A stretch of DNA of 15,321 nt, taken from IMG/VR virus record IMGVR_UViG_2698536443_000012. One strand, 5' to 3'. The notes under the pieces are model-generated. The model had not been told where the DNA came from and searched no databases. It saw only the letters and a program-made list of their open reading frames with translations. Every line of letters begins with the position of its first letter. The first letter of the stretch is position 1. The translations under genes and the position numbers were made by a program. The stretch is from a virus (Duplodnaviria; Heunggongvirae; Uroviricota; Caudoviricetes). This document shows, in pieces, positions 7,715-15,180 of this stretch.

Positions 7715-8473
7715 ATGAGGAACATAATGGCAGGTTTTTTAATATTCCTGTCTTCTGCTGCTTATGCTGATATCAATCTGTATGGTCCTGGTGGCCCGCA
7801 TACAGCCTTGCTTGATGCAGCCAAACTTTATGCCGAAAAAACAGGTATTATAGTGAACGTTCATTACGGCCCACAGAACAAATGGAATGAAGATGCCAAA
7901 AAAAATGCAGATATCTTGTTTGGCGCATCAGAACAATCTGCTCTGGCTATCATTCGGGACCATAAAGACAGCTTCAGTGAAAAAGATATTCAGCCTCTTT
8001 ATCTGCGAAAAAGTATTTTACTGGTAAAGAAAGGTAATCCTAAAAATATCCGGAGTATTGACGACCTGACCAGACCTGGGATTGGCGTAATTGTTAATGA
8101 TGGTGGTGGTACCAGTAATACATCAGGCACTGGCGTCTGGGAAGATATTGCCGGACGTAAAGGGAATATAGAAACTGTCGCCGCAATCCGAAAAAATATT
8201 ATTTTATATGCGCCCAATAGCGGAACTGCACGTAAGGCTCTTGAGAATCAGCCTGGAGCAGATGTCTGGATAACCTGGGCTGACTGGGCAGCCAGTAATC
8301 CAGAAATTGGTGATGTCGTGGAAATAGCGCCAGACTACGTGATATGGCGTGATATGAACATTACAGTACGTCAGGATGCAAATGATGAAACCCGTCGATT
8401 TGCAGAATGGCTACAAACCGATGAAGCGGCGCCTGCATTCAAAAAATATGGCTGGACCAGGAAAGGCACTTGA
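7715..8473 (+). CDS. Secreted/periplasmic solute-binding protein, ModA-like (type 2 periplasmic binding fold), orphan
   Basis: AAGGAG RBS 6 nt upstream. N-terminal signal peptide MRNIMAGFLIFLSSAAYA then DINLY. C-terminal ...RRFAEWLQTDEAAPAFKKYGWT resembles the ModA C-terminus (...FYDYLKGPQAAEIFKRYGFT, from memory). AT-rich gene with no adjacent permease or ATPase genes. Confidence 0.7.
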   Translation: MRNIMAGFLIFLSSAAYADINLYGPGGPHTALLDAAKLYAEKTGIIVNVHYGPQNKWNEDAKKNADILFGASEQSALAIIRDHKDSFSEKDIQPLYLRKSILLVKKGNPKNIRSIDDLTRPGIGVIVNDGGGTSNTSGTGVWEDIAGRKGNIETVAAIRKNIILYAPNSGTARKALENQPGADVWITWADWAASNPEIGDVVEIAPDYVIWRDMNITVRQDANDETRRFAEWLQTDEAAPAFKKYGWTRKGT

Positions 8474-8505: not shown

Positions 8506-8808
8506 CCGGATGCCGCGCCAGCGGCATGTAGGGGCAGCTCACAAAACGGAAAAAATTGTACGCTAAGCCTCGCCAGGTGAACTGAATTCATTCCGATATG
8601 GGAATTCCCATATCGGGCGAAAACGGTTTGCTGTAACGGCAGAGTTAAGTAGGATTGCTGCGGGTGCTTGAGGCTATCTGCCTCGGGCATGAACACCAAC
8701 GGCAGATAGATAAAAGCCCCACCCGACTATAAATCGAAGTGAGGCCCCTATATGCTCGTCACATATAGATTGCCTCTTACGGACCGAAAGGTCAAGGAGA
8801 AGCAGGCT

Positions 8809-8964
8809 ATGAAGCAGCAAAAGGCGATGTTAATCGCCCTGATCGTCATCTGTTTAACCGTCATAGTGACGGCACTGGTAACGAGGAAAGACCTCTGCGA
8901 GGTACGAATCCGAACCGGCCAGACGGAGGTCGCTGTCTTCACAGCTTACGAACCTGAGGAGTAA
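8809..8964 (+). CDS. hokD: Hok-family membrane toxin (HokD/RelF-like), with in-frame upstream mok extension from 8752
   Basis: 51-aa ORF MKQQKAMLIALIVICLTVIVTALVTRKDLCEVRIRTGQTEVAVFTAYEPEE, the Hok family signature. The in-frame extension MLVTYRLPLTDRKVKEKQA with GAGG RBS fits a mok reading frame. Confidence 0.85.
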   Translation: MKQQKAMLIALIVICLTVIVTALVTRKDLCEVRIRTGQTEVAVFTAYEPEE

Positions 8965-10847: not shown

Positions 10848-11213
10848 ATGACTGAACGGATAGAATTTGTTTTGCCTTACCCGCCGACGGTGAATACCTA
10901 CTGGCGACGTCATGGCAATACGTATTTCATCTCGGAAGCCGGAAAGCGTTATCGCCGTGATGTGGCGCTAATTGTTCGCCAGCAGCGGCTGAAATTAAAC
11001 CTGTCCGGAAGGCTGGTGATAAAGATTATTGCAGAGCCACCGGATAAGCGCCGTCGTGACCTGGACAATATCCTGAAAGCACCACTGGATGTGCTGACGC
11101 ATGCCGGACTTCTCATAGACGACGAGCAGTTTGATGAAATCAATATTGTGCGCGGTCAGCTCGTTCCTGGTGGGCGGCTGGGGATAAAAATCACAGAACG
11201 GGAGTGCGCATGA
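10848..11213 (+). CDS. rusA: Holliday junction resolvase RusA
   Basis: 121-aa ORF with YPPTVNTYWRRHG...RRRDLDNILKAPLDVLTHAGLLIDDEQ, matching conserved RusA motifs (compare E. coli RusA ...[22 protein letters not shown]). Start abuts the stop of the upstream gene. Confidence 0.85.
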   Translation: MTERIEFVLPYPPTVNTYWRRHGNTYFISEAGKRYRRDVALIVRQQRLKLNLSGRLVIKIIAEPPDKRRRDLDNILKAPLDVLTHAGLLIDDEQFDEINIVRGQLVPGGRLGIKITERECA

Positions 11214-11899
11214 ATAACCACTATTTACAGTTTGTGCGTGAGCAGCTCATTATCGCCACCGCTGATTTGAGTGGGGCAACAAAAGGTCAGCTTGAAGCCT
11301 GGCAGGAGAATGCCATGTTCGATACAGGGCGTTACAGGCGAAAAAAAATCCGGTACCGCGATGAAGTGACTGGAAAAATGATAACGCGGGATAATCCACC
11401 AATCCCGGGAAAGCAATCGCTGGCGAAGGTGACGTCAATTCCTCTGGTCAGTCCGGTTGAGTTTTCGACATCATCGTGGCGGCGGGCTGTTCTGTCTCTT
11501 GAAGAACATCATAAAGCCTGGTTGTTGTGGTGTTACAGCGGGAGTATTTGTTGGGAATATCAGATCGCGATAACACAGTGGGCGTGGAATGAATTTAATA
11601 CTCAATCCGGTACCAGAAAAATTGCTGGGAAAACGCAGGAACGCCTGAAAAAATTAATCTGGCTGGCGGCGCAGGCAGTAAAAGCAGAACTTTTTGGTGG
11701 GGAAGGTTATGAATATCAGGAGCTGGCATTACTGGCGGGAGTGACAACTAAAAACTGGTCCAAAACATTTACTCGTCACTGGGTTGCAATGAAACACATT
11801 TTTCACCGACTGGATAGTGAGGCTTTATTATTTGTAATGAGAACACGTTCAAAACAAAAGGCGGCATTTTCAAAGCAAAGTGTTGCAAAAGTAGATTGA
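11210..11899 (+). CDS. Late-gene antiterminator, Q-like
   Basis: ATG at 11210 overlaps the rusA stop (ATGA); the track's 11204 start is GTG. About 230 aa, located between rusA and the late promoter/tRNA region, the canonical Q position. Family assignment is from context plus general resemblance. Confidence 0.65.
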   Translation: MNNHYLQFVREQLIIATADLSGATKGQLEAWQENAMFDTGRYRRKKIRYRDEVTGKMITRDNPPIPGKQSLAKVTSIPLVSPVEFSTSSWRRAVLSLEEHHKAWLLWCYSGSICWEYQIAITQWAWNEFNTQSGTRKIAGKTQERLKKLIWLAAQAVKAELFGGEGYEYQELALLAGVTTKNWSKTFTRHWVAMKHIFHRLDSEALLFVMRTRSKQKAAFSKQSVAKVD

Positions 11900-12056: not shown

Positions 12057-12085
12057 TTGCAACATTGATTTCGTAACGTTATTAT
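12057..12085 (+). promoter_or_regulatory. Candidate sigma70 promoter for the tRNA cluster
   Basis: -35 TTGCAA (12057-12062), 17-bp spacer, -10 TATTAT (12080-12085), placing the start about 10 nt before tRNA-Ile. Confidence 0.4.
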
Positions 12086-12094
12086 CCTGCGCCC

Positions 12095-12170
12095 GGCCCT
12101 TTAGCTCAGTGGTGAGAGCGAGCGACTCATAATCGCCAGGTCGCTGGTTCAAATCCAGCAAGGGCCACCA
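12095..12170 (+). tRNA. ileZ: tRNA-Ile2 (anticodon CAU, lysidine type), ileZ-like
   Basis: Hand-folded cloverleaf: acceptor GGCCCTT/AAGGGCC, D-arm GCTC...GAGC, anticodon loop CTCATAA, T-loop TTCAAAT, encoded CCA. Close to E. coli ileX as I recall it. Confidence 0.85.
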
Positions 12171-12171
12171 A

Positions 12172-12247
12172 CCGCCACTAGCCATCAGGAAAGAGCGTCA
12201 ACCCTTTAAGTTGAGTGTGCGAGGTTCGAGTCCCCGGTGGTGGTCCA
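12172..12247 (+). tRNA. tRNA-like gene, atypical (possible argN-like); identity unresolved
   Basis: Acceptor CCGCCAC/GTGGTGG with one GU pair, T-arm CGAGG-TTCGAGT-CCCCG, anticodon stem TCAAC/GTTGA with loop CCTTTAA (C at position 33, anticodon UUU by position), degenerate D-stem, encoded CCA. Confidence 0.45.
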
Positions 12248-12260
12248 TTATCGGTATTCT

Positions 12261-12334
12261 GCGTTGTTAGCTCAGCAGGACAGAGCAATTGCCTTCTAAG
12301 CAATCGGTCACTGGTTCGACTCCAGTACAACGCG
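12261..12334 (+). tRNA. tRNA-Arg (anticodon UCU), argO-like
   Basis: Acceptor GCGTTGT/ACAACGC, D-arm GCTC...GAGC, anticodon stem ATTGC/GCAAT with loop CTTCTAA, T-arm ACTGG-TTCGACT-CCAGT. No encoded CCA (CTA follows). Confidence 0.8.
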
Positions 12335-12340
12335 CTACAC

Positions 12341-12415
12341 TTATTTTCCCGGCTCGCTTTTGCGGGCCTTTTTTGTATCTGCGCCACGCCCGGCGCATAC
12401 CAACCACAGAGCCTT
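12341..12415 (+). repeat. Copy 1 of a ~75-bp post-tRNA segment (terminator hairpin plus second hairpin), about 90% identical to 14106-14179
   Basis: Contains terminator GGCTCGC-TTTT-GCGGGCC plus T6 (12351-12374) and hairpin TGCGCC-ACGCCC-GGCGCA, then CAACCACAGAGCCTT. Aligned by eye to the second copy. Confidence 0.7.
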
Positions 12416-12481
12416 AATGAGGTAGCCTGAGTTTAACGGACACTCCTTCCTGAAATAGAATGGCATCAGAAGGAGCTAATA

Positions 12482-12784
12482 ATGAGCAGAAAAACCCAAC
12501 GTTACTCTAAAGAGTTCAAAGCCGAAGCTGTCAGAACGGTTCTTGAAAATCAACTTTCGATCAGTGAAGGCGCTTCCCGATTATCTCTTCCTGAAGGCAC
12601 TTTAGGACAATGGGTTACCGCCGCCAGAAAAGGGCTCGGTACTCCTGGTTCCCGCACGGTGGCTGAACTGGAATCTGAAATTCTGCAACTGCGTAAGGCG
12701 TTAAATGAAGCTCGCCTTGAGCGAGATATATTAAAAAAAGCAACTGCGTATTTTGCCCAGGAGTCGCTGAAAAATACGCGTTAA
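12482..12784 (+). CDS. IS600 transposase OrfA (HTH)
   Basis: MSRKTQRYSKEFKAEAVRTV...LRKALNEARLERDILKKATAYFAQESL, recognised as IS3-family OrfA (IS600). Confidence 0.85.
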   Translation: MSRKTQRYSKEFKAEAVRTVLENQLSISEGASRLSLPEGTLGQWVTAARKGLGTPGSRTVAELESEILQLRKALNEARLERDILKKATAYFAQESLKNTR

Positions 12785-12819
12785 TCGAACAATGGCGACA
12801 ACAATTCCCCATTGAAGCG

Positions 12820-13638
12820 ATGTGTCAGGTATTTGGTGTATCCAGGAGCGGTTATTACAACTGGGTACAGCATGAACACTCAGACAGAAAACAAAGTGAT
12901 GAGCGGCTAAAACTGGAGATTAAGGTGGCACATATCCGCACTCGCGAAACATATGGAACCCGGCGGCTCCAGACGGAGCTGGCAGAGAATGGCATCATCG
13001 TTGGTCGTGACCGACTGGCACGTCTTCGTAAGGAGCTAAGGCTACGCTGTAAGCAGAAACGCAAGTTCAGAGCGACTACGAACTCGAACCACAATCTGCC
13101 AGTTGCGCCAAATCTGCTGAACCAGACGTTCGCTCCTACAGCACCAAATCAGGTCTGGGTGGCGGACCTGACGTATGTTGCCACACAGGAGGGATGGTTG
13201 TACCTCGCTGGCATCAAAGATGTTTATACGTGCGAAATTGTCGGCTACGCCATGGGAGAGCGCATGACAAAAGAGCTGACAGGTAAAGCCCTGTTTATGG
13301 CGCTCAGGAGCCAGCGCCCACCTGCCGGGCTAATCCACCACTCCGATCGAGGTTCACAGTACTGCGCATACGATTACCGGGTCATACAGGAGCAGTTTGG
13401 TCTGAAAACATCAATGTCGCGTAAAGGTAACTGTTACGACAACGCTCCGATGGAAAGCTTCTGGGGAACGCTGAAAAATGAGAGCCTGAGCCACTATCGT
13501 TTTAAGAGCCGGGATGAGGCCATCTCAGTAATACGGGAATACATTGAGATTTTCTACAATCGTCAGCGTCGTCACTCTCGTCTGGGGAATATCTCCCCGG
13601 CAGCCTTCAGGGAAAAATATCATCAGATAGCTGCTTAA
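12820..13638 (+). CDS. IS600 transposase OrfB (DDE integrase core); expressed as OrfAB by -1 frameshift
   Basis: DDE motifs in VWVADLTYV, HHSDRGSQY and MESFWGTLKNE. The frame overlaps the orfA 3' end after the AAAAAAG slippery site. Confidence 0.85.
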   Translation: MCQVFGVSRSGYYNWVQHEHSDRKQSDERLKLEIKVAHIRTRETYGTRRLQTELAENGIIVGRDRLARLRKELRLRCKQKRKFRATTNSNHNLPVAPNLLNQTFAPTAPNQVWVADLTYVATQEGWLYLAGIKDVYTCEIVGYAMGERMTKELTGKALFMALRSQRPPAGLIHHSDRGSQYCAYDYRVIQEQFGLKTSMSRKGNCYDNAPMESFWGTLKNESLSHYRFKSRDEAISVIREYIEIFYNRQRRHSRLGNISPAAFREKYHQIAA

Positions 13639-13681
13639 AAAAAGAACAAATGGTAGTGTCCGCTATTGTCAGTACACCTCA

Positions 13682-13814
13682 GGATGCTAAGTACGGGAAA
13701 TGGAGAGCAAGAATTAATGCGTCTGGAAAGTGTATTAACCTTGGATACCATGACACTGCCGAACTTGCCGCTGCGGCTTTTGAGGCAGCCAGAATGAAAT
13801 ATCATACCGTTTAA
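13682..13814 (+). pseudogene. 3' remnant of an HNH homing endonuclease (AP2-like C-terminal domain), truncated by IS600
   Basis: Frame ending at 13814 encodes ...DAKYGKWRARINASGKCINLGYHDTAELAAAAFEAARMKYHTV, typical of the AP2-type C-terminus of phage HNH endonucleases. The 5' part is missing and the frame runs into the IS600 right end. Confidence 0.45.
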
Positions 13815-13868
13815 AGATGTAAGCTGCCGTTAGTGACTCTTAAGTTGCAACGGTGGCTTTTTTTATTT

Positions 13869-13943
13869 GGGTCAGTCGTATAAAGGTCATTACGGAAGGC
13901 TGTTAACCTTCTTATCGTGGTTCGAGTCCACGCTGTCCCGCCA
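13869..13943 (+). tRNA. tRNA-Asn-like (anticodon GUU)
   Basis: Acceptor GGGTCAG/CTGTCCC (one T-T mismatch), anticodon stem GAAGG/CCTTC with loop CTGTTAA, T-arm CGTGG-TTCGAGT-CCACG, encoded CCA. D-arm is weak (3 bp). Confidence 0.55.
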
Positions 13944-13948
13944 AACAT

Positions 13949-14024
13949 GCTGGTTTAGCTCCAATGGTAGAGCAACTGACTTGTAATCATCAGGTCGCCA
14001 GTTCGATTCCGGTAGCCGGCACCA
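13949..14024 (+). tRNA. tRNA-Thr-like (anticodon UGU), thrU-like with weakened anticodon stem
   Basis: Near-identical to E. coli thrU as I recall it, except the 3' anticodon-stem strand (TCATC instead of TCAGT) leaves only 3 canonical base pairs. Anticodon loop CTTGTAA, T-loop TTCGATT, encoded CCA. Confidence 0.55.
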
Positions 14025-14027
14025 TAT

Positions 14028-14102
14028 GCGGGTACCGTATAATGGCTATTACCTCAGCCTTCCAGGCTGATGATGCGGGTTCGATTCCCGCTACCCGCTC
14101 CA
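14028..14102 (+). tRNA. tRNA-Gly (anticodon UCC), glyT-like
   Basis: Sequence GCGGGTACCGTATAATGGCTATTACCTCAGCCTTCCAGGCTGATGATGCGGGTTCGATTCCCGCTACCCGCTCCA differs from E. coli glyT (from memory) at only a few positions. Perfect acceptor stem, encoded CCA. Confidence 0.8.
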
Positions 14103-14105
14103 GAT

Positions 14106-14179
14106 TTATTATCAGGCTCGCTTCGGCGGGCTTTTTTTGTATCTGCGCCACGCCCGGCGCATATCAACCACAGAGCCTT
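14106..14179 (+). repeat. Copy 2 of the ~75-bp post-tRNA segment, including a terminator
   Basis: Terminator GCTCGC-TTCG-GCGGGC plus T7 (14115-14138), hairpin TGCGCC-ACGCCC-GGCGCA, then CAACCACAGAGCCTT; about 90% identical to 12341-12415. Confidence 0.7.
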
Positions 14180-14270
14180 TCGGGGGTGAGCTTACGGAGT
14201 GGTCAGTGTGACTTTCTCTGTGGGCAGATCGCTCCCGGGCGTTGGCTCACCCACCCAAAGGAACGTCACG

Positions 14271-14702
14271 ATGTTTGGTATTTTTGGTAAAAAAGCCCGC
14301 AGAGCAGCAACTGAAATTAAAAAGTTTGAGAAACGCGATCTGGCACAGGCGGTTATTAATGCTGCCTACCTGGTGGCCTATGCAGATGGTGAATGTGAGA
14401 CTTCAGAGAAAGCGAAGATCGAACAGGTATTACGTAACCAGCCAGCATTGTCCGCATTTACGTCAGAAATTAATGCCATCAGTGCCACGATCACAGGTCA
14501 GCTTGACACCAATTTTAAAATTGGTCGTCGTGCAGCGTTGCGTGAAATTGAAGATGTGAAACACGATACGCGTGAAGCGGAAGATGTGCTGGATGTGGCG
14601 GTGGCCATTGCTGAAGCAGATGGTGAAATTGAGCCGGAAGAGCGTAAGGTTCTGGAAGAGATTGCTGGTGTTCTTGGCCTGCGACTGGAGAACCACCTGT
14701 GA
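14271..14702 (+). CDS. TerB-like (tellurite-resistance TerB domain) protein
   Basis: 143-aa ORF from ATG 14271 (AGGAA upstream); the track's longer version starts at 14199. Two A-x-ADG-E-x-E repeats (AYLVAYADGECETSEKAKIEQVL and VAIAEADGEIEPEERKVLEEIAGVLG) typical of TerB-family proteins. Confidence 0.65.
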   Translation: MFGIFGKKARRAATEIKKFEKRDLAQAVINAAYLVAYADGECETSEKAKIEQVLRNQPALSAFTSEINAISATITGQLDTNFKIGRRAALREIEDVKHDTREAEDVLDVAVAIAEADGEIEPEERKVLEEIAGVLGLRLENHL

Positions 14703-14866: not shown

Positions 14867-15180
14867 TTTTTTTGTTTGCTGTTTATTAAAAACACTTCTG
14901 CATGGTGAATCCCCCTGTGCGGAGGGGCGATCAGCAACCAGGTATATGGGATAATCGCGGATTCAGGTGCTGATACTGAATTCACCGGGAGGCACCCGGC
15001 ACCATGCTTTGCCACAAAAGTGTTGTTTCTGTTTTTCTCAAACTATCATCATTATCCCTTTATTTCCGGCTGCGCATGGCGTGGCCTTTTTTTTACGACC
15101 AGCCACTGGCAGATGGCCATCCTGTAATTTGATTCCGGTTCCGGCTTTTTAACTCTGTTCCTGTACACGGGAGAAATTCG

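Follow-up and report, generated by a model that had tools for sequence, protein, structure and literature searches.

Why would a lambda-like phage keep two tRNA genes whose structures depart from the canonical form, and are these genes likely to give working tRNAs? The question is raised by a stretch of 15,321 nucleotides (nt) of viral DNA (Duplodnaviria; Heunggongvirae; Uroviricota; Caudoviricetes), IMG/VR record IMGVR_UViG_2698536443_000012, which we call the window. It contains two small sets of tRNA genes separated by an insertion sequence. One atypical gene is the middle member of set 1; the other lies in set 2 and resembles thrU, the host gene for tRNA-Thr(UGU). An initial annotation of this DNA had suggested that both might be pseudogenes or variants with altered decoding. 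For about 25 years, tRNA genes beside the late promoter of Shiga toxin (Stx) phages and other lambda-like phages have been explained as a supply of rare-codon tRNAs, and work published from 2023 to 2025 describes virulent phages and phage 21 that survive tRNA-cutting host nucleases by means of their own tRNAs. We propose that both atypical genes could be phage-owned, nuclease-evading replacement tRNAs held in late-promoter cassettes, a reading that we regard as evenly poised between right and wrong. Taken by itself, the Thr gene is probably, by a modest measure, a replacement allele that survives cleavage, and the family to which the middle gene belongs is a candidate lysine replacement tRNA, a proposal that we make with somewhat more doubt than belief.

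Two standard predictors each detect one atypical gene and miss the other

The two genes are the following.

12172-12247, + strand: argN-family tRNA with anticodon arm UCAAC-CCUUUAA-GUUGA (anticodon UUU, C33); ARAGORN Lys(ttt), alignments
13949-14024, + strand: tRNA-Thr(UGU) in which G42U and U43C unpair 28-42 and 27-43; 49.0 bits in Rfam, alignments

At its default setting, ARAGORN found five tRNAs in the window, at 12095-12170 (Met, cat), 12172-12247 (Lys, ttt), 12261-12335 (Arg, tct), 13869-13943 (Asn, gtt), and 14028-14102 (Gly, tcc). The Rfam tRNA model (RF00005; gathering threshold, 29 bits) also found five, in a different set that skips 12172-12247 and adds 13949-14021 (49.0 bits, E=4.5e-08). 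Each atypical gene is thus detected by only one of these two standard predictors. The Thr gene, which passes the Rfam model and is missed by ARAGORN at default, was called Thr(tgt) by ARAGORN at a 90% threshold (-ps90). The middle gene, called Lys(ttt) by default ARAGORN, was unmatched by the Rfam tRNA model both at the gathering score and at E<=10, its only permissive Rfam match being to tRNA-Sec (15.7 bits, E=1.9). Minimum-free-energy folding returned no cloverleaves even for host tRNAs, and its use was restricted to comparisons between named structures. Chance does not explain either gene; near-identical relatives of both are found in hundreds of phage and Escherichia coli records.

Two adjacent substitutions in the tRNA-Thr gene are predicted to block cleavage by P2 Old

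As the initial annotation had it, two of the five anticodon-stem pairs of the Thr gene are broken: in the drawn fold, the stem ACUGA/UCAUC leaves A27.C43 and C28.U42 unpaired, so that 3 pairs remain of the canonical 5 base pairs (bp), and Rfam flags non-standard pairs at the top of this stem. The accompanying statement that the gene is nearly identical to its host counterpart except for these two changes proved too strong. We counted 11 differences from E. coli K-12 thrU over 76 positions (3, 5, 6, 14, 15, 16, 17, 42, 43, 49, and 68); alleles with the two changes only do exist, in other prophage contigs. Positions 1 to 25 are identical to the phage 21 tRNA-Thr, and positions 26 to 76 are those of thrU with G42U, U43C, A49G, and U68C. 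Pairing survives the changes in the acceptor and T stems (U3.G70, G5-C68, U6.G67, and G49.U65). The near-invariant U8, G18-G19, and T loop (UUCRANY) are present. Position 14 has C instead of the near-invariant A, and the phage 21 tRNA-Thr, with the same C14 D loop, is reported to be functional (PMC12445682). An identical sequence is annotated as tRNA-Thr by RefSeq and its Prokaryotic Genome Annotation Pipeline (PGAP). Import of the stem changes from phage 21 was considered and rejected, as the 3' stem strand of phage 21 is GCGAA.

The lethality of P2 Old is reported to come from cuts in thrU after C28 and C40, which lie in paired CNG motifs, and cells are reported to be rescued by phage tRNA-Thr(UGU), that of phage 21 among them (PMC12445682). 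Resistance to Old is obtained only when an altered CNG motif and a shortened stem occur together (Govande et al. 2025, PMC12445682). In the window gene, positions 40 to 42 read CAU compared with CAG, a CNG motif, in the host; C28 is unpaired, the 5' CUG is kept, and loss of the 27-43 pair shortens the anticodon stem. As folded, the two adjacent substitutions bring about both published conditions for Old resistance, because G42U makes CAU and unpairs C28 and U43C removes the 27-43 pair. The resulting tRNA would accept threonine, read ACA, and resist cleavage, and it would sustain late translation once host thrU is cut.

The same arm recurs well beyond this window. ACUGA/UCAUC is present in 28 IMG/VR contigs, in the complete phage JLK-2012, and in one O55:H7 genome; it is spread over seven or more backbones and six or more cassette layouts, with the other stems all intact. 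These backbones include pure thrU with the two changes only, thrU with the D loop AGCAGGCA, AGCAGGUA, or AUCAGGUA, and a phage 21-type 5' half with or without U68C. The alleles form a graded series: in E. coli 94EC, the Thr and Gly genes equal host thrU and glyT, in OkiPb01701 the Thr gene has only A14C, and the window and JLK-2012 stand at the most derived end. U16 is lost in 28 of the 30 alleles with the UCAUC stem and in none of the 23 prophage Thr alleles whose stem is wild type, counts that represent non-independent events and involve at least three different D-loop solutions. Mismatches at 27-43 and 28-42, as well as T5-type and Thr6-type arms, also recur in a broad IMG/VR survey of Thr(UGU) arms, which mixes unrelated hosts and is unreadable against E. 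coli nuclease specificity. Neither of the labels first proposed, pseudogene or altered decoding, fits a gene with an intact anticodon and otherwise intact stems whose stem change recurs on this many backbones.

The two substitutions have a further structural consequence. Within positions 27 to 45 (window 13975-13993), they create UCAUCAGG, which enables a slipped 4-bp stem (C28-G45, U29-A44, G30-C43, and A31-U42) with a 10-nt loop, calculated at -20.5 kcal/mol, compared with -17.6 kcal/mol for the canonical stem. We return to this register below.

The middle gene is an argN-family tRNA, and the window copy is probably impaired

For the middle gene, every feature that had been described (a cloverleaf, C33, a degenerate D stem, and an anticodon that reads UUU by position) is present in the ARAGORN fold. 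The suggestion that it might be argN-like was borne out by a full-length alignment with argN of Stx2 phages, with 12 differences in 77 columns. Compared with argN of Stx2a_F349, the window gene has U7C, loss of U12, two D-loop changes, G30A with C40U, U33C, C35U, G36U, G43A, and two variable-loop changes. The drawn fold has a 7-bp acceptor stem with a G3.U70 wobble and a 5-bp anticodon stem; the D stem has two real pairs only, compared with the canonical 4 bp, and the T stem has one A.C mismatch. C33 stands in place of the near-invariant U33, U8, GG, and the T loop are kept, and the discriminator is U73 on an Arg-like body with A20. The window copy has lost U12 of the D stem, which leaves it at 76 nt compared with 77 nt in its relatives, and RefSeq/PGAP leaves the gene unannotated in genomes with an identical sequence. 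Because of the D-stem deletion, the miss by the Rfam tRNA model, and the lack of a PGAP annotation, we regard this copy as probably impaired or inactive.

The UUU/C33 branch of the argN family keeps its pairing and is common in E. coli

Versions of 77 nt with an intact D stem occur in phage Evi and in E. coli 94EC and OkiPb01701. Among 120 IMG/VR contigs with an argN-family gene having an intact D arm, the commonest single allele carries the arm UCAAC-CCUUUAA-GUUGA (19 contigs; about 25 for the arm in total), and the remaining alleles are Arg(UCG) or, in a few cases, UCU or GCG. When 35 distinct alleles of the family were aligned, 96% of pair cells were paired, and the UUU clade differed from the Arg clade in both members of three pairs: 7-66 (UA to CG), 27-43 (CG to UA), and 30-40 (GC to AU). 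These three compensated pairs therefore indicate an anticodon arm that was rebuilt with pairing kept, unlike that of a decaying gene. A likely precursor allele has the same stem and the loop CUUCUAA (Arg UCU, U33), and thus just U33C and C35U are required to reach the UUU arm. The 77-nt UUU allele scores 44.4 bits in Rfam compared with 43.0 for argN, the two 77-nt relatives of the middle gene score 44.4 and 33.1 bits under RF00005, and 77-nt UUU alleles are annotated as tRNA-Lys by RefSeq/PGAP.

We found the UUU/C33 arm in 749 of 5,426 complete E. coli genomes (about 14%), using as query 58 nt that span the 5' two-thirds of the middle gene and sorting matches by identity to the window. Matches of >=99% (221 genomes) are the window's 76-nt form, never annotated as a tRNA among the matches listed; those of 95-99% (338 genomes) are the intact 77-nt form; and those of 90-95% (190 genomes) are further damaged forms, such as that of JS316 with C4U, U8C, and C11U. 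Among 185,579 species representatives, the arm is confined to E. coli and Shigella flexneri. In IMG/VR, the intact UUU allele lies nearly always within cassettes of the order Ile-Lys-Thr-Gly, where the UUU gene has 0.065 segregating sites per site and the adjacent Gly gene 0.067. This gene-to-gene comparison was kept; a test of gene against flank is confounded, as the flanks are mosaic and non-homologous between phages.

From these patterns, we judge that the allele family functions as a real tRNA. The label of pseudogene is plausible for the window copy and not for the family, whose 77-nt members score like argN and carry the three compensated pairs. The suggestion of altered decoding holds in one sense only, namely, that the anticodon has changed from UCG (Arg) to UUU (Lys by position). 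A stronger form of it, in which the UUU tRNA is mischarged, for example with alanine, and the slipped, 10-nt-loop form of the Thr tRNA causes frameshifting, seems to us very improbable. The window, Evi, and Stx2a_F349 alleles do have G3.U70, the pair by which alanine tRNAs are chiefly recognized, and nearest-neighbor energies favor the slipped Thr register. Most alleles of the middle-gene clade have G3-C70, however, mistranslation of the abundant Lys codons would be harmful, and frameshifting is otherwise unsupported.

The scaffold in this middle slot carries a range of arms (UCG, UCU, GCG, UGG, UUU with C33, and one with a 6-nt loop), with stems paired throughout. In two IMG/VR contigs (L294 and L300), the gene directly before tRNA-Thr has the scaffold of the window middle gene, CCGCCAC...AUCAGGAA, with the arm ACAAC-CACGGU-GUUGU, whose 6-nt loop leaves the anticodon undefined in ARAGORN. 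The middle gene of phage TL-2011c (L306:9181-9257) equals PA18 argN except for C35G, giving UGG, tRNA-Pro by position. In Stx2c_PV98-693 (L028:1603-1682), the anticodon arm in the same slot is deleted (a 12-nt gap), and from its alignment this gene is clearly a pseudogene derived from a window-type allele. The many arms on one scaffold leave room for drift or for a role other than decoding.

AriB target positions are changed in the Lys-like and Asn genes, and the PrrC position in the Lys-like gene

Set 2 also contains these two genes.

13869-13943, + strand: tRNA-Asn(GUU); ARAGORN, Rfam 55.3 bits; equal to the phage 21 and JLK-2012 gene
14028-14102, + strand: tRNA-Gly(UCC); ARAGORN, Rfam 55.4 bits, alignments

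By ARAGORN, the anticodons UUU (Lys), UGU (Thr), and GUU (Asn) are all present in the window. Lys(UUU), Thr(UGU), and Asn(GUU) tRNAs are the three main targets of AriB, the nuclease of PARIS, which cuts them between positions 40 and 41 of U36AAUC/A41, and U39A, A41C, and U16C protect tRNA-Lys (PMC12409363, PMC11464382), with U16C, at a D-loop contact, impairing AriB cleavage of tRNA-Lys (Belukhina et al., PMC12409363). Three T5 tRNA variants, of which T5 tRNA-Thr is one, together neutralize PARIS (PMC12409363; Burman et al., PMC11464382). Positions 36 to 41 of the three window genes read as follows.

Lys-like gene: UAAGUU, host UAAUCA; C16 in the numbering of the 77-nt allele; free of CNG on both strands; equal to T5 tRNA-Asn here
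Asn gene: UAACCU, host asnT UAAUCC; AriB stretch changed
Thr gene: UAAUCA, equal to host; A16; differs from position 42 on

Thus, U39, C40, and A41 of the AriB site are all changed in the Lys-like gene. Escape of the Thr gene's product from AriB is uncertain. PrrC cuts tRNA-Lys 3' of U33 (PMC2610378); the Lys-like gene has C at this position, and we infer that C33 would block PrrC. In the Gly gene, differences from host glyT consist of U8C, at a near-invariant position, A38G, and a compensated acceptor pair, C-G to U-A (C6U plus its partner). Host glyT has paired CNG motifs (CAG/CUG), and A38G occurs on several Gly backbones beside the variant Thr gene, in 21 of 29 cases.

The older explanation, that the cassettes supplement tRNAs for codons overused by phage late genes and that the odd features are tolerated variation, is rather improbable in our estimate. 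The Stx-phage set of Ile(CAU), Arg(UCG), and Arg(UCU) does read codons that are rare in E. coli, and thrU and glyT are single-copy genes in K-12, each occurring once in the K-12 thrU-tyrU-glyT-thrT operon that we examined. ACA is also enriched in phage SfI, a carrier of the Asn-Thr pair, whose authors nevertheless saw no codon bias accounting for its tRNA-Asn (PMC3636060). Codon supply cannot explain the Lys and Asn genes, because K-12 is already multi-copy for both, with at least 5 tRNA-Lys(UUU) genes and 4 tRNA-Asn genes. It also leaves unexplained the clustering of changes at positions 42-43 and 16 of Thr and at 39-41 of the Lys-like and Asn genes.

A role outside decoding, whether the RNAs decoy or competitively inhibit anticodon nucleases by their tRNA-like shape or serve as punctuation for processing of the late transcript, is less probable again. 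The variety of arms in the middle slot, extending even to a 6-nt loop on stems that are always paired, would suit such a role, as would a slipped Thr stem that presents a CUG/CAG motif. Against it, the Thr gene keeps its anticodon and both G1-C72 and C2-G71, which are threonine identity elements. Belukhina et al. (PMC12409363) raise the possibility of competition for AriB between host tRNAs and viral tRNAs that are overexpressed; the phage 21 tRNA-Thr is reported to work by replacing thrU, not by protecting it (PMC12445682).

Two cassettes from different prophages appear to be joined through IS600

Judged from its genes, the window comes from a lambda-like prophage and covers its late-control region. 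The + strand order is the DUF968 gene, RusA, the Q antiterminator, a promoter-like site, tRNA set 1, a terminator-like hairpin, IS600, an AP2 open reading frame (ORF) remnant, a phage 21-type terminator stretch, tRNA set 2, a second hairpin, and the TerB gene. Besides the tRNA genes given above, it includes the following.

11204-11899, + strand: late antiterminator Q gene (Pfam PF06323 Phage_antiter_Q, E=1e-90)
12057-12085, + strand: promoter-like site TTGCAA-17-TATTAT, directly 5' of the first tRNA (consensus scan)
12095-12170, + strand: tRNA with CAU anticodon, ileZ-like (ARAGORN; Rfam 72.5 bits; PGAP tRNA-Ile)
12261-12335, + strand: argO-like tRNA-Arg(UCU) (ARAGORN; Rfam 68.1 bits)
12351-12415, + strand: terminator-like hairpin plus the next 40 nt, together copy 1 of a 65-nt direct repeat (terminator scan)
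12418-13680, + strand: IS600, IS3 family, bridging both cassette segments (Pfam HTH_Tnp_1 and rve)
13681-13814 (alternatively 13650-13814), + strand: C-terminal AP2-domain ORF remnant, cut by IS600 (Pfam AP2, E=4.2e-05)
13820-13868, + strand: stretch homologous to the terminator just past the phage 21 late promoter start (phage 21 and JLK-2012 matches start at 13820)
14114-14179, + strand: second terminator-like hairpin, copy 2 of the 65-nt repeat (terminator and repeat scans)
14199-14702, + strand: TerB-family gene 3' of the cassette (Pfam TerB, E=4.9e-16)

The gene order around Q matches that of prophage PPompW, and the ileZ-argN-argO-like order between Q with its late promoter and the downstream late genes is present in the window. 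Because its position corresponds to that of pR' in phage 21, we infer that the promoter-like site is a putative equivalent of the late promoter pR'. For set 1, identity reaches 100% with PPompW prophages and 94.5% with Stx2 phages, in which the genes are ileZ, argN, and argO. Set 2 is 99.7% identical to JLK-2012 and about 92% identical to phage 21, Sf6, and BTP1, whose versions have the Asn and Thr tRNAs only; the TerB gene also lies downstream of the cassette in JLK-2012, where it is named tciA (JLK-2012 and O55:H7 annotation). The 65-nt direct repeat (D1) follows each tRNA set, with copy 1 and 14115-14179 at 94% identity. IS600, named from PGAP's "IS3-like element IS600" on copies that are 99% identical, is flanked by TAA and GGA and thus shows no 3-bp target duplication. 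Two alternative cassettes from different source prophages thus seem to have been joined via IS600 copies. The joined arrangement of set 1, IS600, and set 2 was found in none of the complete E. coli genomes of the collection, and the phage 21-type late promoter and Q-binding element are absent before set 2 in the window. In PPompW prophages, another element, ISEc20, lies within about 4 nt of the IS600 site after the terminator, and this spot may be an insertion hot spot.

The AP2 match of the ORF remnant falls under the curated Pfam cut-off. The same remnant sequence lies directly 5' of tRNA-Asn in 5 IMG/VR contigs; therefore, some prophages have this ORF between the late promoter and the cassette. 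The argO-like gene ends in ...ACAACGC G CUA, with GCUA where its 77-nt relatives from Stx phages and IMG/VR have GCCA, so that CCA is not encoded, and this loss fits a cassette under relaxed constraint in the window lineage. As an origin for the arrangement, direct capture of the host thrU-tyrU-glyT operon was rejected: the cassettes lack tyrU, and their Thr-Gly spacer is 3 nt.

Such signs of wear bear on the possibility that both genes are decaying relics of a defective prophage, with odd features that are neutral lesions and no function, which we consider unlikely. The middle gene, with its 1-nt D-stem deletion and its failure in the Rfam tRNA model and in PGAP annotation, is consistent with decay; so are an argO without encoded CCA, a Gly gene with C8, a region split by an IS600 that lacks a target duplication, the dead gene of Stx2c_PV98-693 in the same slot, and U8C, A9G, or C25A in other lineages. 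Decay does not account for a Thr stem variant that is unchanged on at least seven backbones in at least six layouts, with other stems paired, and that is present in the complete phage JLK-2012. Nor does it account for a UUU clade that is separated from the Arg clade by three fully compensated pairs and is no more variable than the adjacent Gly gene.

The window has several other features. An antisense RNA, DicF, matches at 1493-1544 on the - strand (76.7 bits, full length, Rfam). A match to the sok antitoxin RNA at 8662-8964 (+, 103.9 bits) overlaps a 70-amino-acid (aa) hok/gef-type ORF at 8752-8964, whose PPompW counterpart is annotated gef. A 252-aa ORF at 7715-8473 (+) has a solute-binding domain, SBP_bac_11, and its PPompW counterpart is annotated as the adherence factor Paa/AdfO. 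The small RNA STnc100 matches at 14871-15043 (+, 104.7 bits), 3' of the TerB gene; this family is also found downstream of stx2 in Stx2a_F349.

How far the evidence supports replacement tRNAs

If both genes are nuclease-evading replacements, cassettes just downstream of Q and the late promoter would hold copies of the tRNAs that anticodon-arm nucleases (P2 Old, PARIS AriB, and PrrC) destroy. For the middle gene, the argN-family anticodon arm would have begun as Arg(UCG or UCU) and been remodeled to UUU with C33, and the intact 77-nt form would work as a cleavage-resistant lysine tRNA, with the window copy probably impaired.

Several observations weigh against this proposal. The Thr gene retains the AriB site, and its slipped stem, favored by 2.9 kcal/mol in nearest-neighbor terms, would bring back a paired CUG/CAG motif. 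Most Ile-Lys-Thr-Gly cassettes have a Thr copy identical to host thrU, and therefore membership in a cassette is by itself no proof of resistance. The window copy of the middle gene lacks U12, fails the Rfam tRNA model, and is passed over by PGAP, and in addition to C33 in place of the near-universal U33 and to G3.U70, it has U73 where tRNA-Lys has A73; the E. coli tRNA-Lys identity set is U34, U35, U36, and A73. Other lineages of the UUU allele are hit at conserved positions (U8C, A9G, and C25A), and the slot tolerates anticodon damage, as in the one Stx phage with a plain C35G. The prophage itself looks degraded, with an IS600 lacking a target duplication, an argO without CCA, and a set 2 severed from its own late promoter.

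A wider and doubtful extension of the replacement proposal is that the small late-promoter tRNA cassettes of lambda-like prophages are modular counter-defense islands, not a codon supply. Host thrU and glyT would have been captured first and would later have acquired mutations at a few positions of their arms, an Arg-type scaffold would repeatedly have been given new anticodon arms, including the C33 lysine-reading arm and the 6-nt-loop form, and some cassette RNAs may act as nuclease decoys rather than as decoders.

That phage tRNAs with altered anticodon arms evade tRNA nucleases is already published, and one relative, the tRNA-Thr of phage 21, has been put to the test. To the extent that the searchable literature covers the subject, what is new here is the two-base thrU variant and its spread; the argN-family tRNA recoded from Arg to Lys with C33 and its frequency in E. 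coli; and the Ile-Lys-Thr-Gly cassette. We found nothing relevant in that literature on ileZ/argN/argO and the Ile-Lys-Thr-Gly cassette. The alleles described here allow the idea to be tested in temperate phages of pathogenic E. coli on naturally occurring variants, one a thrU copy that departs from the host gene only at the two bases predicted to block cutting, the other a lysine-reading tRNA on an arginine scaffold that annotation misses in part of the carrier genomes. If the proposal is true, cassette content would help to predict prophage induction and spread, including those of toxin-carrying phages, in hosts with P2-like prophages, PARIS, or PrrC.

Comparison with known systems

The window Thr gene agrees with host thrU at 65 of 76 positions, including the anticodon loop, the T arm except for position 49, and the discriminator; it differs in its replaced D-loop positions 14 to 17 and in the changes at 42 and 43 that break pairing. 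Its closest functional parallels are the phage 21 tRNA-Thr (tRNA-Thr21) and the coliphage tRNA-Thr6, which have the same anticodon and rescue P2 Old toxicity (PMC12445682). Like the window gene, the phage 21 gene lies downstream of Q in a lambda-like phage and has the same 5' 25 nt, and in both parallels the 27-43 pair is lost and the CNG motif altered. In contrast, the phage 21 stem is GUCGC/GCGAA, whereas the window gene keeps the thrU 5' stem strand and loop, and its two adjacent substitutions break two pairs rather than one.

The PARIS-evading tRNAs of T5 have the same three anticodons as the window, and U16 is replaced in both. T5 tRNA-Thr shares CAUC at 40 to 43 and the 28.42 mismatch with the window Thr gene, and T5 tRNA-Asn shares the 3' stem strand GUUGA and UAAGUU at 36 to 41 with the window Lys-like gene. 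The tRNA bodies are unrelated, however, T5 is virulent whereas the window phage is temperate, and the window Thr gene keeps UAAUC/A. T5 tRNA-Lys has a normal U33, unlike the Lys-like gene, which is an Arg scaffold with C33 and U73.

The argN gene of Stx2 phages occupies the same slot between ileZ and argO downstream of Q, and in Stx2a_F349 it has the same scaffold, matching the window middle gene at 65 of 77 positions. It differs in its UCG anticodon (F349, EH2201, and PA18), compared with UUU, C33, and the lost U12 of the window; the 30-40 pair is G-C in Stx2a_F349 and A-U in the window, and comparison with the main Arg(UCG) clade adds two more pairs, 7-66 and 27-43, in which both bases have changed. 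In remolded tRNA genes of bacteria and organelles, the body of one identity gains the anticodon of another by point changes, and the putative identity shift seen here is similar. It is unlike them in having occurred within a phage cassette, with a rebuilt stem and C33.

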